Assembly (NCBI GenBank): GCA_037386545.1
Contig: JARRLY010000014.1
Location: 1 to 57,168, forward strand
Length of the DNA stretch: 57,168 nt
Reading direction: 5' to 3'
From: Candidatus Bathyarchaeota archaeon
GTDB taxonomy: Archaea > Thermoproteota > Bathyarchaeia > Bathyarchaeales > Bathyarchaeaceae
Shown piece after piece: positions 10,214-57,168 of this stretch. A program made the translations under genes and the position numbers. Below the pieces are notes generated by a model. That model ran no database searches. It was not told the origin of the DNA and worked only from the letters and a program-made list of their open reading frames with translations. How positions within the stretch are numbered: position 1 is the first letter of the stretch; each line of letters begins with the position of its first letter.

Positions 10214-10378
10214 TCACTCGTATTTCCTAAAACCCAGGTCGCTTGCAATTTCTCGGAAACATTGCCGACAAAGGTCTAAGCCATATCTGCGTACAAGGGA
10301 ACCGTAGGATCCACATCGCCTACAGGGACGACTGCCCTTACCAAATTTTCGTTCTACTTTAGTTTGCTGTTTCACCAT
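10214..10378 (-). CDS. rps14: 30S ribosomal protein uS14, zinc-binding type (54 aa; not in ORF track)
   Basis: Manual translation [54 protein letters not shown]; two CxxC motifs. Confidence 0.96.
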
Positions 10379-10388
10379 GATTCACCAT

Positions 10389-11164
10389 TTATAGTATTTC
10401 AACATCAAATTCGTCTTTAATAAATAATATCGCTTCTTTAGCAGTTAACTGATGGTCTTTACCAATTTTAGCTTGGCGACGGTGCTTGCGTTTAACGCGA
10501 TAACCGGCTCGCCCAAGAGAAACTGAAACATCCATACCATGAATTCCAAGTTCAGGCAAATATCTAGTCCCTGGAAGGTTTATGTGCTCCTTGATTCCAA
10601 AGGAAAAGTTGCCTTGACGATCAAACGAGTATTTTGAAATTTTGTTTTCAACAGCATAAAATGCTTTGTTCAAAAACTCTTTTGCTGGCTCATCCCTAAG
10701 AGTAACTACACAAGCGATTGGTTCTCCTTTTCGGATGCCAAACTCGCGTATTGTCTTTTTGGCGTTGCGTTTAGAGGGTTTTTGGTTTGTTAATTGTTTA
10801 ATTATTGTAACTGCTTGGTCCAATGGAGCACCAGATTTTCCAACAGACATGTTAACTGTTACTTTCTCAATCATTGGCATAAGCATAGGATTTCCAGCCC
10901 ATTCTTTACGCACAGTTTTAGCAACAGGCTTAGATTCAGGTTTTTCCTCAGTTGTAGGCTTTTCTTTTTCTACAGATGCAGATTCTTTCTCAGCTTCTTT
11001 CTTATCAGATTTTTTCTCTTGATCAACAGGAACTTCAACCTTAACAGGTTTCTTTTCTTCTGCAGAATCTTCAGTCTTAGTTTTTTTGGTTACCTTCGTT
11101 GATTTTTTCTCGGGTTTTTTTCAGATGCAATTTTTTCTTCAGATTTTGTTTTTTTGTCTGCCAA
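10389..11164 (-). CDS. rpl5: 50S ribosomal protein uL5 with ~84-aa Lys/Glu-rich N-terminal extension; reading frame interrupted at the A7 run 11115-11121
   Basis: Core 10389-10913 (IEKVTVN, FGIRKGEPI, GNFSFGIKEH). The frame stays open upstream to the A7 run; TTG 11164 lies 1 nt after the eS4 stop. Confidence 0.9.
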
Positions 11165-11165
11165 C

Positions 11166-11924
11166 TTACCTTTCCTCCGGCACAGATGTTAAGGCTTCAT
11201 TATCCCCTAGAGCAAAAACAAAATCAAGAATTGTTTGCAACTGATTTCCGTTTTCATCTTTAATTGTTACGATGAGGTCTCTGCGTTTTTTGTCTGCTTG
11301 TTTTTCAATTTTGTCGATTTTGCCGATTTTACCCATATTTTTTCCGCCGATTACAATGACAGATGCACCGACGTCTAGTTTTGTGTGATTAAGGAGTTCA
11401 CGATCAGGGATACTAAGTTTTAAAACGTCAAGAGTAGTATAAACAACCTTTTCTGGCAATGAATATTCAGTTTCTTCAACTAAGTAATTTGAGCCATCAT
11501 GCAAATCAAGTCGCATTTTGCCATTTTTTACTATAGTTTTGTCTTCAATTCGGTAGAGCTTAAAGGAGGCACTGTTAGAATCAATTGGCCTCAAAAATAG
11601 ACCTTTTTCAGAGGGCAAAATTGTGTAAGATTTGTTATTTTCAGGTACAGTTATTATGTCCATTAAACCGACAAGAAACTTTTCGTCACGTCTAACTTTT
11701 CCATCAACTAGGATTTTTCCTGAAGATAGAATGTTTCTAACTTCTTTAGCGGTCTTTGCAAATCCAAGCATGTCTCGTACAATTAAAGCCAAAGGTAACG
11801 AACGTGAAGCAGGATGAGCCCCAGGGTTAGGTTTTACTGTCCAAACTTTTTCTTTTCTGTGAATAGGCCACAATTTTGGCGCTGGTTTACGTTTAAGATG
11901 CCCGCGTACGCCTTTTCTTCCCAA
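11166..11924 (-). CDS. rps4e: 30S ribosomal protein eS4
   Basis: HLKRKPAP, PGAH, VDGKVRRD, VGLMD. Confidence 0.96.
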   Translation of the reverse strand: MGRKGVRGHLKRKPAPKLWPIHRKEKVWTVKPNPGAHPASRSLPLALIVRDMLGFAKTAKEVRNILSSGKILVDGKVRRDEKFLVGLMDIITVPENNKSYTILPSEKGLFLRPIDSNSASFKLYRIEDKTIVKNGKMRLDLHDGSNYLVEETEYSLPEKVVYTTLDVLKLSIPDRELLNHTKLDVGASVIVIGGKNMGKIGKIDKIEKQADKKRRDLIVTIKDENGNQLQTILDFVFALGDNEALTSVPEER

Positions 11925-11925
11925 A

Positions 11926-12381
11926 TTATTTTCCTCCAGTTTCCTTTTTTACTTTAGTTGCTTTTTTCTTGCTTTTTGTTGTTTTCTTTTTAGGCTTTTC
12001 TTGGGGGGCTTCAGCTTCTTCGTTTGCGCCTTTGCGCTCCAAGATTTTTTTGCGCCATTTATCGTCTAGATTTAAACGTGTAATCATTACTTTTGAAGGA
12101 TGGATAGGAACAGGTATTGCAGTTCCATCTACTTTTTCTCGAGTTGCACCTTCAATAAATATTCGATATTTCTTGCGGTCGATCTGATTGACTTTTCCTT
12201 CAGATCCTTTACGGTCACCTCTCATGACCATAACAGTGTCGCCGTTTCGAACAGGAAGGGACCTAATTCCGTGAGATTCTTTCAATTTAGCGGAAAGAGG
12301 AGCAGAAAATCGTTTATAGCGATCAGTACCAGTGGCTTGATACAGCTTTTTTCTTTGCTTAGTGGGTTTAGTTACTTTCAT
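11926..12381 (-). CDS. rpl24: 50S ribosomal protein uL24 with Lys-rich C-terminal tail
   Basis: PVRNGDTVMVMRG KOW motif, IHPSKVMI. Confidence 0.96.
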   Translation of the reverse strand: MKVTKPTKQRKKLYQATGTDRYKRFSAPLSAKLKESHGIRSLPVRNGDTVMVMRGDRKGSEGKVNQIDRKKYRIFIEGATREKVDGTAIPVPIHPSKVMITRLNLDDKWRKKILERKGANEEAEAPQEKPKKKTTKSKKKATKVKKETGGK

Positions 12382-12393
12382 CAGATAAATCTC

Positions 12394-12834
12394 CTACAAA
12401 ATGATACTTGCAGCGCTGGCAATTCTTGGCCATTTTTCTGCTGCTTCTTTTGCTATTGGACCACGAATTTCTGAACCACGCATTTCTCCTTCAGGAGTCA
12501 TTACTACTGCTGCGTTATCTTCGAACTGAACCCAAGTTCCGTCTACTCGTCGAAAGGGTTTTCTTTGTCGAACAACAACAGCGTGGAATATTTTTTTGCG
12601 CATATCAGGAGTGCCTTTTCTAACTGATATAGTTATCAGGTCACCTACTGATGCTGATGGAACGCGTCTAAGTCTTCCTTTGTATCCTACTACTTGGATT
12701 TGTCGGACTTCTCGAGCCCCAGAGTTATCGGCACATTTCAAAACTGCACCATTGTTTAATCCTCGGGAAATTTTTGGTTTTTGACCAACAACACCTTTGG
12801 CCATAAAAGCGCGCGACTTAGCTCGTGCTGCCAC
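12394..12834 (-). CDS. rpl14: 50S ribosomal protein uL14
   Basis: CADNSGA, FEDNAAV; start uncertain (GTG 12834 vs ATG 12843). Confidence 0.96.
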   Translation of the reverse strand: MAARAKSRAFMAKGVVGQKPKISRGLNNGAVLKCADNSGAREVRQIQVVGYKGRLRRVPSASVGDLITISVRKGTPDMRKKIFHAVVVRQRKPFRRVDGTWVQFEDNAAVVMTPEGEMRGSEIRGPIAKEAAEKWPRIASAASIIL

Positions 12835-13156
12835 CAGAACCATCCTCCAGTTTTTCTATTACTACGAAGCCCACGGTCTTGCTTATTGGGCGACATTCTG
12901 CTAATCGTACTTTGTCTCCTACTTTAATTCCTAAGCAGGGGGGGCTGTGTGCAGCTACATTGCTTCGTCTTTTTTCATATCTTCTGTATTTTGGAACGTA
13001 ATTTAGGTAGTCGCGACGAACAATAACGGTTTTTTCCATTTTGTTACTTACAACTGTCCCTTCTAGTGCGTGTCCTCTCAATGCAAGTGTCCCATGAAAG
13101 GGACAATTAATATCGTCACATGTTTTCTTTGGTTTTTTTGCGGTTAATGCTGACAT
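12818..13156 (-). CDS. rps17: 30S ribosomal protein uS17
   Basis: CPFHG, KYRRYEKRRS, ECRPISKT. Confidence 0.97.
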   Translation of the reverse strand: MSALTAKKPKKTCDDINCPFHGTLALRGHALEGTVVSNKMEKTVIVRRDYLNYVPKYRRYEKRRSNVAAHSPPCLGIKVGDKVRLAECRPISKTVGFVVIEKLEDGSGGSTS

Positions 13157-13438
13157 TTACCAAGCTCTCCGTATTCTTTTTTTAAGTCGATCTTCAGGTC
13201 GTCCAGTCATTACTTTGCCGTCGATTTCCACAACTGTTCCGCTTGACAATGTGAAATCAAAAACGGCAGTGTCTTTGATGACAACCTTTCTCTGATTATT
13301 ACATGATAATGTAAATGTGTTACGGGTCTCGTCAATTATTTGACCATTTAATCCAACAACAGAAGGGTTAGAACATTTAACTACGTTAGCTTCAAGACCA
13401 ATGAATTCATCCTGAACTATACTTGGAGCTACATTCAT
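13157..13438 (-). CDS. rnp1: Ribonuclease P protein component 1 (Rpp29/POP4)
   Basis: EFIGL, GQIIDETRNT, RPEDRLK; usual position between uL29 and uS17. Confidence 0.93.
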   Translation of the reverse strand: MNVAPSIVQDEFIGLEANVVKCSNPSVVGLNGQIIDETRNTFTLSCNNQRKVVIKDTAVFDFTLSSGTVVEIDGKVMTGRPEDRLKKRIRRAW

Positions 13439-13647
13439 TTCTGTTCACCATTCTGTTCTTCTGCGTCGATGGTTAAGATACGAGCAATAGTTTTACGCAT
13501 TTCACGAATCTGCGAGGGATTGTCAATGGCTCCTCCCGCAGCAACCATTGTTTTTATTCGTGCAAGTTCTGTTCGGAACTCGTTCACTTTTTCAATGCGT
13601 TGCTCCGAAGACATTTCTCGGATTTCTTTAACTCGTAAAATGGCCAT
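13435..13647 (-). CDS. rpl29: 50S ribosomal protein uL29
   Basis: EIREMS, IREMRKTIARILT. Confidence 0.95.
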   Translation of the reverse strand: MAILRVKEIREMSSEQRIEKVNEFRTELARIKTMVAAGGAIDNPSQIREMRKTIARILTIDAEEQNGEQK

Positions 13648-13649
13648 GA

Positions 13650-14756
13650 TTATTTACCTGCCTCTTTTGTTTCTTCAGGAGCTGACTCTTTTTCAGCTTC
13701 TTTCTTTTCAGACTTTTTATCTTCTTCAATTGGAGCCTCAACCTTAACAGGTTTCTTTTCTTCTACAGGAGCAGTTTCAACTTTAGGTTTAGCTTCTGGT
13801 TCAGGAGCTTTGGCAGGTTCTGCTTCCTTTGCAGGTTCAGCTTTCTTTTCAGTTTTTTTCTCTTTCTTTTCTTCAGCAACTTCAGTTTCAGAAGACTTTG
13901 TCGGTTTTTCCTTTTTAGGAACATCCTTTTTTGGTTCAGATTCTGCAGGTTTAGTTTTTTCTTCCACAGGAGCTTCAACTTCAGCAGGTTTTTCTTCTGT
14001 TACTGGTTTTTTCTCTTCAGCAGGAGTAGCTTCAACCTCAGGTTTAGCTTCCGTTTCAGGAGCTTTCACAGATTCTTCTTTGGAAGTAGTTTCTGCTTCA
14101 ACTGGCGCTTCAGGGCTTATTTCTTCTTTTTCTACTACTGGTTGTGGTGTAGCTTTGTCTGGAATGTCGTAAACTTCTAGTTTGTCGGGAAATACTGCAT
14201 CTGGTGGAAGAAGGCTTACTCTTACACCTAATGTTCCAGGTTTAAGGTGAACATCCAGTTCTGCAGTTCTCATGTATTTTCGGGGAGGTTCACCGCTTTT
14301 GGGCAGATATCCTTCAATGAATTTCTCGTATCGAGCGCGGTCTGTTCGGAGTTTGCCGCTGATTATTACTTCGATGCCTAGTGCGCCTGCTTCCATTGCG
14401 TTGGTTATTGCCCAAAATCCTGCGCGCCTGTAGTGAATGCCACGTTTCAGAGCTGAGGCAATTCGTGATGCGACTACGTGGGCGTTTAGTTCGGGAACTT
14501 CGATTTCTGCTACAGAAATTTGTGGGCTTGGAAGTTGGAATTGTTCTTCTAGAATTCGTGCGAGAGCACGGATTGTTTCTCCACCGCGACCAATTACGAG
14601 TCCGGGGCGCATGGTGTAGATGACTAAGTGTGTACCTAAAGGAGTCTTTGTTATGCTTACTCCACCGTATCCTGCGCGTTCGAATTCATTTTGTAAGAAT
14701 TCTTCGATTTCGATTTTTTTGATTGAATCTTCTATGAAATGATTAACTACAGACAT
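13650..14756 (-). CDS. rps3: 30S ribosomal protein uS3 with ~170-aa E/K/P/A-rich C-terminal tail
   Basis: KH domain RPGLVIGRGG, GIEVIISGKL; low-complexity tail follows PDKLEV. Confidence 0.97.
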   Translation of the reverse strand: MSVVNHFIEDSIKKIEIEEFLQNEFERAGYGGVSITKTPLGTHLVIYTMRPGLVIGRGGETIRALARILEEQFQLPSPQISVAEIEVPELNAHVVASRIASALKRGIHYRRAGFWAITNAMEAGALGIEVIISGKLRTDRARYEKFIEGYLPKSGEPPRKYMRTAELDVHLKPGTLGVRVSLLPPDAVFPDKLEVYDIPDKATPQPVVEKEEISPEAPVEAETTSKEESVKAPETEAKPEVEATPAEEKKPVTEEKPAEVEAPVEEKTKPAESEPKKDVPKKEKPTKSSETEVAEEKKEKKTEKKAEPAKEAEPAKAPEPEAKPKVETAPVEEKKPVKVEAPIEEDKKSEKKEAEKESAPEETKEAGK

Positions 14757-15226
14757 TAAATTCCTTCCATTTCTTCCAAAACAATTTCCACATGTGTGAG
14801 AGTGTTATATCGTGGCGATGAACGACCAAAAGCTCGAGGAATAAACCGCTTGATTTTCATTCCAGGAAAAGCTGAAGAGTGAACTATCTTTAGTTGTTCA
14901 ATATCCAGTCCTTTATATTCAGCGTTTGCTTCACCGCTTTCAAGAATCTTCAATACTGCTTGGGCAGTTTTTACAGGATATCTTCCTGCAAAACCATAAT
15001 CCATTCCATGGCGGTGGGGCACATGTTTTTTGAATCTTCCGAATGGAACTGCTTTTTTCTTTAAGATAACTTGGCGAAGGAAATCTTTAGCTTGTTCTAG
15101 TTTCATTCCGTTTATGGTTTTACATACTTCTCGTGCATGTTTATGGGACACCCTAAGTTCGCGTCCGCTAGCTTTTGCGGTCTTATCGGGTTCCATATCG
15201 GTTACTGAGTATCCCCATTTTGGCAT
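14756..15226 (-). CDS. rpl22: 50S ribosomal protein uL22
   Basis: VSHKHAREVC, GRYPVK, PRAFGRSSP; ATG 15226 preferred. Confidence 0.96.
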   Translation of the reverse strand: MPKWGYSVTDMEPDKTAKASGRELRVSHKHAREVCKTINGMKLEQAKDFLRQVILKKKAVPFGRFKKHVPHRHGMDYGFAGRYPVKTAQAVLKILESGEANAEYKGLDIEQLKIVHSSAFPGMKIKRFIPRAFGRSSPRYNTLTHVEIVLEEMEGI

Positions 15227-57010: not shown

Positions 57011-57168
57011 ATGAATCCAGTTATTGAAGCCATAAACGGTAGACGCTCCGTAAGGGCTTATGATTCAAAACCTATTCCTGAAGACATCCTGAAACAAATT
57101 ATTGACGCAGGCAACCAAGCACCATATACTTCCATGACTCGTTCGCAGCCTTGGCGGTTTGTTGTTGT
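57011..57168 (+). CDS. Nitroreductase-family protein (partial)
   Basis: Manual translation MNPVIEAINGRRSVRAYDSKPIPEDILKQIIDAGNQAPYTSMTRSQPWRFVV. Confidence 0.88.
   Translation, partial: MNPVIEAINGRRSVRAYDSKPIPEDILKQIIDAGNQAPYTSMTRSQPWRFVV

Follow-up and report, generated by a model that had tools for sequence, protein, structure and literature searches.

Ribosomal proteins are textbook examples of slowly evolving, vertically inherited genes, and uS3 and uL5 occupy different subunits of the ribosome, the former in the head of the 30S and the latter in the central protuberance of the 50S. How do two such proteins come to carry the same peptide? The question is raised by a contig of a Candidatus Bathyarchaeota archaeon (assembly GCA_037386545.1, contig JARRLY010000014.1, positions 1 to 57,168), referred to here, at its whole length of 57,168 nucleotides (nt), as the window. 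In it, a segment of the region encoding the C-terminal tail of uS3 recurs in the region encoding the N-terminal extension of uL5. An earlier reading of the letters of this DNA (the sequence-only reading) had noticed the repeat and had attributed it to a recently copied or homogenised module on the ribosome surface, perhaps a docking motif or a solubility tag. We found that the repeat is a true DNA-level duplicate, and that the same two tails share modules of different sequence in many genomes of the genus Candidatus Bathyarchaeum. For these shared modules, recurrent gene conversion or segmental copying between the two tails, which are probably disordered, is in our judgement the likely explanation.

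A discrete tract shared by the uS3 and uL5 genes

Both copies of the repeat lie on the minus strand and in the same reading frame, offset by 2703 nt (901 codons). A repeat search placed one copy at 13662-13768, in the uS3 tail, where it encodes EEKKPVKVEAPIEEDKKSEKKEAEKESA, and the other at 10959-11065, in the uL5 N-terminal extension, where it encodes EEKKPVKVEVPVDQEKKSDKKEAEKESA; the two align without gaps and are identical at 88 of 107 nt (82% by repeat search). The narrower alignment given by the sequence-only reading, of 10978-11064 with 13681-13767, is likewise ungapped with 74 of 87 nt identical, and the peptides that it quoted are indeed those encoded by the two copies on the minus strand in a common frame. 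Its exact 27-mer is also present in both, at 11035-11061 on the uL5 side and at 13738-13764 on the uS3 side (minus strand in each case). Beyond 10959-11065 identity falls to background, giving the tract sharp borders, and nothing of the likeness is left in the flanks: uS3 and uL5 tails stripped of the module had a protein score of 83 against a null mean of 80.5 (p~0.38), and a nucleotide score of 14 against a shuffle maximum of 20. We therefore rejected a wider resemblance between the whole uL5 extension and the uS3 tail, as suggested by tblastn with low-complexity filtering switched off (38% identity over 118 amino acids, aa), since it dropped to shuffle level once the module was removed. A discrete tract with sharp borders and unrelated flanks is the form in which a gene conversion tract would be expected to appear.

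More copies elsewhere in the genome, for which the sequence-only reading had proposed to look, were not found. In the whole 1.37-Mb assembly, blastn-short matched the two copies to each other (E=4.9e-15) and returned no third copy, the next best match being a 22-mer (E=0.004). Genome-wide self-blastn gave only ordinary paralogs and overlaps between contig ends among the best 60 of 127 matches. A mobile or otherwise repeated genomic element was rejected as the basis of the repeat, as no full further copies were found in this genome (G000) or in three relatives with modules of their own (G001, G005 and G010; see below). An RNA element was rejected as well: Rfam searches of 10300-14800 at E up to 1 returned no RNA family match, and the modules are species-specific.

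Two trivial origins of the repeat can be excluded. Both tracts are compositionally biased, and an acidic repeat protein encoded in the same genome gives weak tblastn matches (30-34% identity) to the uS3 tail, so that two K/E-rich low-complexity sequences might be suspected of resembling one another by chance. However, the local nucleotide score of the uS3 tail against the uL5 extension was 51, whereas 200 codon shuffles averaged 13.8 and never exceeded 20, and a 27-mer with two matches arose in 0 of 100 dinucleotide shuffles of the window; with the blastn-short E value already given, these results exclude chance resemblance, to which we attach next to no credence. A chimeric assembly was the other concern, given that the window is a contig of a metagenome-assembled genome (MAG) with a likely assembly or strain defect, a 121-nt deletion, 50 nt from the repeat, and that the Logan contigs of one study (X1) break near it. 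Misassembly is nevertheless excluded as the source, because L049, an independent Joint Genome Institute (JGI) metagenome contig 99.5% identical to the window, carries both copies in their proper gene contexts, and because Logan contigs of two other studies (X3 and X4) each span individual copies. The same pattern of sharing was seen in many independent genomes, including on contigs of 776 kb and 1.56 Mb, and we consider an artefact of this kind extremely improbable. Shuffled sequences that align equally well and reads that point to misassembly were what the sequence-only reading had named as able to overturn its claim, and neither did so.

The same two tails share different modules across the genus

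To place the repeat in a wider context, we assembled a set of both tails from 19 genomes of the genus, with this species represented by an intact, near-identical contig; three further genomes with one of the two genes missing on the contig, and two with uL5 only, were left out. The within-genome nucleotide score between uS3 tail and uL5 extension exceeded all 200 codon shuffles in 10 of the 19, and was not above the shuffles in the other nine (G016, G006, G004, G014, G017, G003, G013, G011 and G036). The shared tracts comprise 39-148 aligned nt, are in frame and have a distinct sequence in every lineage (123/132 nt identical in G001, 78/82 in G005, 66/70 in G010, 66/72 in G039, 123/148 in G007 and 83/99 in G000). 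Self-blastn of the 6-8-kb loci from the same genomes detected long-range repeats between the uS3 and uL5 tail tracts in 12 of 19 and no shared module in the remaining seven, and it detected no long-range repeat between any other pair of genes. When the modules of G001, G005 and G010 were searched in their own genomes no full third copy was found; G001 has a weaker third match inside the same uS3 tail (E=4.2e-4), and G010 a marginal 32-nt match elsewhere in its genome (E=0.0035). The proposal that the tails be compared in related genomes was thus a productive one, and with the same tails sharing modules in 10-12 of 19 genomes, the appeal of the sequence-only reading to copying or homogenisation was of the right kind.

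In several lineages, two copies in one genome resemble each other more closely than orthologous copies in different genomes do, which is the pattern of concerted evolution. In G001 the paralogous tracts show 93% identity across 132 nt, and identity to the sister G018, in either of its genes, is 88% over 94 nt; those of G005 are 95% identical over 82 nt vs. at most 92% over 52 nt elsewhere; and for the G010 module no score of 22 or above was obtained in the rest of the set. Outside such matches, the orthologous tails of the genus can scarcely be aligned. In 8 of 19 genomes the uS3 tail found its best partner in the uL5 extension of the same genome, reciprocally so in 5, and the own-genome nucleotide scores (the diagonal) summed to 644, compared with 340 on average and at most 519 over 10,000 permutations of the genome labels; kinship among genomes makes the rows of this permutation test non-independent, and having to beat a sister's copy biases it in the conservative direction. 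On a core-protein tree, the module-sharing genomes fall in at least six separate clades. The identity of the shared modules extends to synonymous positions, and it therefore reflects shared descent of the DNA, not convergence of the peptides.

A second set gave a similar picture. It consisted of 19 uS3/uL5 protein pairs of other contigs, drawn from a large protein collection and paired by an equal 'longest contig' value, one pair having been dropped whose annotated uL5 has no extension. The own partner was best in 10 of 19 rows and 9 of 19 columns, with examples as close as 31/31, 56/62 and 36/39 identical residues, and the diagonal sum was 696 vs. a permutation maximum of 506.

Age and direction of the window's module

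Matches in relatives bear on how the window came by its own module. In G016 and G006 the module finds a match (78-88% over 60-73 nt) at the distal end of the uS3 tail and none in uL5; because it is the uS3 C-terminal end that matches in these relatives and not their uL5, an ancestor of the species group probably acquired the module in uL5 as a copy of the distal part of the uS3 tail. The uL5 proteins of three close relatives (P0002-P0004, 73-84% identical overall) already carry it, and the copy event therefore predates this species. The sequence-only reading had called the copy recent, which holds in a relative sense only. Exchange seems to run in both directions, because the uS3 tail of one of those close relatives (P0122) holds the stretch VTKKPAKAESAP, which is otherwise typical of uL5. 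This species has a further, different uS3 module for which a match lies in the G016 uL5 extension (score 46-47).

Proposed recurrent exchange between two tails, and its alternatives

The nine residues K, R, D, E, A, P, V, S and T make up ~94% of both tails. AlphaFold2 models show the tails as coil, with a predicted local distance difference test (pLDDT) score of 28-52, and the cores reach only 55-74 on shallow alignments; the tails are probably disordered. Our working reading is that they are surface appendages that tolerate changes of sequence and have no need of a specific motif, and from the patterns above we infer a recombination mechanism acting on them. The two tail tracts are purine-rich, codon-biased and of low complexity; they run in the same direction on one strand of a single ribosomal-protein operon, 2.7-3 kb from each other. 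Between them, segments of 40-150 nt would repeatedly be copied, in frame and in both directions. Non-allelic gene conversion, started by short stretches of identity like the exact 27-mer, would be the most likely route. Because a deletion between the copies would lose essential genes, conversions would be the only events to survive. Replication slippage would meanwhile expand and contract the tracts, as suggested by an 18-nt length variant and an internal 97-nt repeat in the uS3 tail and by the long tandem arrays of two uL5 extensions, those of G005 and G037 (all described below). The outcome would be concerted, mosaic evolution of the tails of two non-homologous proteins, with the window's 107-nt repeat being one such conversion tract. 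A single low-depth X3 contig, in which position 14001 of the uS3 tail is linked through 14 other letters to position 11046 of the uL5 extension, is the sole hint of recombination as such, and it may be a recombinant variant, a relative or a chimera of the assembly graph.

Exchange of this kind has to be set against a simpler history, in which the uL5 extension was born from uS3-tail DNA by one duplication in the ancestor of the genus and the present similarity is what is left of it. Such a history would fit the joint appearance of both tails in the genus and the presence of the window's module in the uL5 of four related species. However, different species share different, non-homologous modules, that of G010 occurs in its uS3 and uL5 and is absent from all other genomes of the set, orthologous tails for the most part cannot be aligned between species of the genus, and within-genome identities of 92-95% exceed the pairwise identities to the orthologous tails of sister species, all of which makes a single ancient duplication highly improbable. 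A different objection concerns selection: the tails might be kept alike for a common co-evolving partner, or for mutual contact across subunits or ribosomes, with those conversions that match them being retained. Sharing in 10-12 of 19 genomes while the tails otherwise diverge very fast would be expected if this were so, as would the restriction to uS3 and uL5 and the covariation of the net charges of the two tails (r=0.65); the differing codons of five modules comprise 16 synonymous and 20 non-synonymous changes, and the latter number is below a rough neutral expectation. On the other hand, matching is evidently not required, as 7 of 19 genomes have no detectable module; module sequence and position in the tail vary by species, with no genus-wide motif in the modules; and the charge of the tails spans acidic to strongly basic (net charge per residue from -0.26 to +0.21 in the uS3 tail and from -0.03 to +0.29 in the uL5 extension across the genus). 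We regard selected matching as unlikely. Still more doubtful is its functional corollary, that selection keeps the tails matched because a species-specific peptide on both uS3 and uL5 serves as a paired handle. If this were true, one co-evolving factor could be recruited to both subunits, or contacts between the polyampholyte tails could organise or store ribosomes in very slow-growing sediment archaea, and gene conversion would be the means by which the pair of tails stays in step.

The docking motif suggested by the sequence-only reading found no support in these comparisons. A short linear motif of this kind should be conserved across orthologs, but the shared modules vary in sequence and position from species to species, 7 of 19 genomes share none, and the charge of the tails ranges from about -0.26 to +0.29. 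Its other suggestion, a solubility tag, or else a surface bristle, may still describe the tails.

Several points weigh against recurrent exchange between sequence-tolerant tails. The charge correlation, which was computed on 19 genomes and is uncorrected for phylogeny, could mean shared selection as well as exchange. The peptides appear to be under some constraint, because non-synonymous changes are fewer than roughly expected under neutrality, and a function is thus possible; the neutral expectation is itself a rough estimate. An identity of 82-84%, taken with the presence of the module in the uL5 of three sister species, is also compatible with one old and diverged copy in the window. The AlphaFold2 models are poor (mean pLDDT 48.7 and 43.6), and the case for disorder draws mainly on composition. 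The pairs of the second set were matched indirectly, and some may be species already counted in the first. Most of the genomes are short-read MAGs and species are sparsely sampled, so that closer relatives could weaken the excess of paralogous over orthologous identity. Finally, the recombination event is deduced from comparing sequences and was not directly observed.

Both tails are confined to the genus

A first draw of genomes gave a match to the uL5 extension in 18 of 18 relatives from the genus; the 12 genomes drawn from 12 other families of the order gave none, their matches beginning at query residue 50-69. A search across the family matched it in 24 of 24 genus relatives and in 0 of 35 genomes from 19 other genera, in 34 of which the match starts at residue 52-74; in the 35th (G045) it starts at residue 25 with three stops inside it. 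Three outgroups have only seven uL5 residues ahead of the core. Within the genus, the extension measures 66-173 aa between a conserved M-AEEK start and the ...RKEW.GNPM core, and the uS3 tail measures 108-238 aa in the 19 genomes vs. 28-85 aa in six outgroups. Going by these comparisons, both low-complexity tails, rich in K, E, A, P and V, are specific to the genus Candidatus Bathyarchaeum. The 60 solved uL5 chains among the matches listed are all 159-196 aa long; their alignment to the 298-aa protein begins only at residue 121-139, so that the extension is absent from every one of them.

Perfect tandem arrays make up parts of two uL5 extensions, with ~13 copies of a 6-residue unit in G005 (contigs L005 and L016) and ~8 copies of a 10-residue unit in G037 (L039). 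These arrays point to growth of the uL5 extension driven by slippage.

Relation to known systems

Low-complexity regions (LCRs) are known from archaeal ribosomal proteins. Ntountoumi et al. (2019; PMC6821194) report 11 LCRs in archaeal S3; the LCRs of that study were enriched in A, E and K, for the most part C-terminal, and assigned to the surface of the ribosome. What we describe for the tail of uS3 agrees with that account of archaeal S3 LCRs in the available text of the study, in which uL5 is not among the proteins named and no sharing of sequence between two ribosomal proteins is described. A solved uS3 of 318 aa (9o17_AC) also aligns past the core.

Concerted evolution by gene conversion has been described for duplicated genes of prokaryotes and for ribosomal-protein paralogs of fungi (PMC6053082, PMC6993855). 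As in these systems, so far as the portions of the two papers at hand describe them, copies within a genome are here more alike than orthologs in several lineages; whole paralogous genes are involved there, whereas here tracts of 40-150 nt move in low-complexity DNA, and the partners are appendages of two non-homologous, single-copy essential genes. Rapidly evolving tandem repeats create disordered regions in the proteins of archaeal Borgs (PMC9879509). The accessible account of Borg repeats resembles ours in its fast, lineage-specific, in-frame repeat dynamics that yield disordered segments, with slippage likely acting here too; unlike those local tandem arrays, the copies here are 2.7-3 kb apart and in two genes.

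Charged archaeal uS3 tails and gene conversion between paralogs are thus known already from the sources consulted, each in the part available. A literature search of titles and abstracts, which leaves aside the supplements of PMC6821194 where uL5 cases may be listed, returned no description of a genus-wide uL5 N-terminal extension; nor did titles and abstracts describe recurrent exchange of tracts between the tails of two non-homologous ribosomal proteins. A paper about circularisation of archaeal rRNA, in which Bathyarchaeia are mentioned, contains no account of these tails. If our explanation is right, two ribosomal proteins of different subunits and without common ancestry have acquired fast-evolving appendages that repeatedly exchange DNA in one genus. 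This would offer a natural system in which to measure non-allelic gene conversion in an uncultured archaeal lineage, would illustrate the origin and remodelling of a new terminal extension in a core ribosomal protein, and would allow a clean test of any sequence-specific role for such tails.

The uS3 gene and its tail

The uS3 gene (13650-14756, minus strand) is an open reading frame (ORF) of 368 aa plus stop, with the Pfam domains KH_2 at residues 16-88 (PF07650, E=2.5e-14) and Ribosomal_S3_C at residues 99-181 (PF00189, E=2.6e-23). Its best matches among solved structures are archaeal uS3 proteins (E=9e-59). The C-terminal low-complexity tail of 177 aa (13653-14183, minus strand) begins after a conserved ...FPD and ends in a conserved ...KEAGK, and Pfam found no domain match in residues 192-368. 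Its composition is K+R 0.21, D+E 0.29, A 0.11, P 0.13, V 0.08 and S+T 0.12.

The uS3 tail is itself built of duplicated EEKKPV-type units. An internal repeat of 97 nt occurs at 13747-13843 and at 14002-14098 (both minus strand, 76% identical), and Tandem Repeats Finder located 2.4 copies of an 18-nt unit at 13808-13852 (minus strand). The 18-nt repeat is polymorphic in length, with an X1 Logan contig carrying an in-frame 18-nt deletion at 13827. In another genome of the genus (G036, contig L038, 2116-3205) the uS3 frame continues into sequence resembling the C-terminal half of the window's L29 ORF, a junction that may be a fusion, a deletion or an assembly defect.

Elsewhere in the genome of this species, on contig C16 (11699-14641), a 608-aa frame with long acidic repeats of PVEA type adjoins a 294-aa frame with a K-rich C-terminal tail. 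These C16 proteins were considered as further sharers of the tails and rejected, their weak tblastn matches to the uS3 tail (30-34% identity) reflecting composition only.

The uL5 gene and the 121-nt deletion

The uL5 gene as found intact (10389-11164, minus strand) encodes an N-terminal extension followed by a core with the Ribosomal_L5 and Ribosomal_L5_C domains. It is interrupted in the window. The core ORF spans 10389-10913, and 10914-11117 is open in the uL5 frame without an ATG, GTG or TTG. The TTG start at 11164-11162, one nt past the S4e stop and preceded by GGAGG at 11178-11174, is in a different frame from the core, so that reading from it stops after 24 codons. A gap of 121 nt (40 codons plus 1 nt) in the extension, at 11113-11121 on the minus strand and flanked by imperfect direct repeats TTTTC(A/G)GATG, breaks the frame. 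The uL5 N-terminal extension named by the sequence-only reading is therefore real, but because of the missing 121 nt the copy of the repeat within it is cut off from its start codon in the window.

The deletion is lacking in four other assemblies. Two JGI contigs (L048 and L049), 99.5-99.7% identical to the window, carry 121 extra nt at 11118-11121 and encode an intact 298-aa uL5 with a 126-aa N-terminal extension, and the X3 and X4 Logan contigs, from two further studies, have 117 unaligned letters at the deletion site. The X1 Logan contigs, which break at 10975 and 11118, and those of a further study (X2), which cover 10 of 30 bins, are silent on the shorter form of the window. The frame break may thus be either a deletion allele or an assembly error, and in practical terms it illustrates how such tails break assemblies. 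A programmed -1 frameshift at A_AAA_AAC (an A7 run), which stands at the frame change in the window, was rejected, since the four assemblies have 121 more nt and a continuous frame; relatives' uL5 genes have continuous frames as well.

The intact protein (L048, 298 aa) has Pfam matches to Ribosomal_L5 (E=1.2e-18) and Ribosomal_L5_C (E=3.7e-19) and none in residues 1-126, and it is identical to entry P0001 of the protein collection, a cluster of 14 member sequences. The extension reads as coding, because its frame is open in every genome of the genus despite large changes in sequence and length, and because its start codon, TTG or ATG, follows directly on the S4e stop in relatives and is preceded at a distance of 8-9 nt by a conserved CCGGAGG in 17 of 17 loci of the genus.

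Five public uL5 entries of the genus from NCBI (P0007, P0027, P0067, P0111 and P0114) are 165-192 aa long, which is the length of the core only. Judging by these lengths, they were probably called from an internal start, the true start being TTG; the tails would in this way mislead gene callers.

The gene for uL24 (11926-12381) lies between the two exchanging tracts and encodes a K-rich C-terminal tail of ~34 aa (residues 118-151) past its Pfam domain; this tail shares no module with either tract. At the end of the window, the last 119 nt (57050-57168) recur unchanged as the opening 119 nt of contig C20 of the same assembly, and overlaps of 119 nt occur likewise at several other contig ends, so that the contigs concerned are likely neighbours in the assembly graph.

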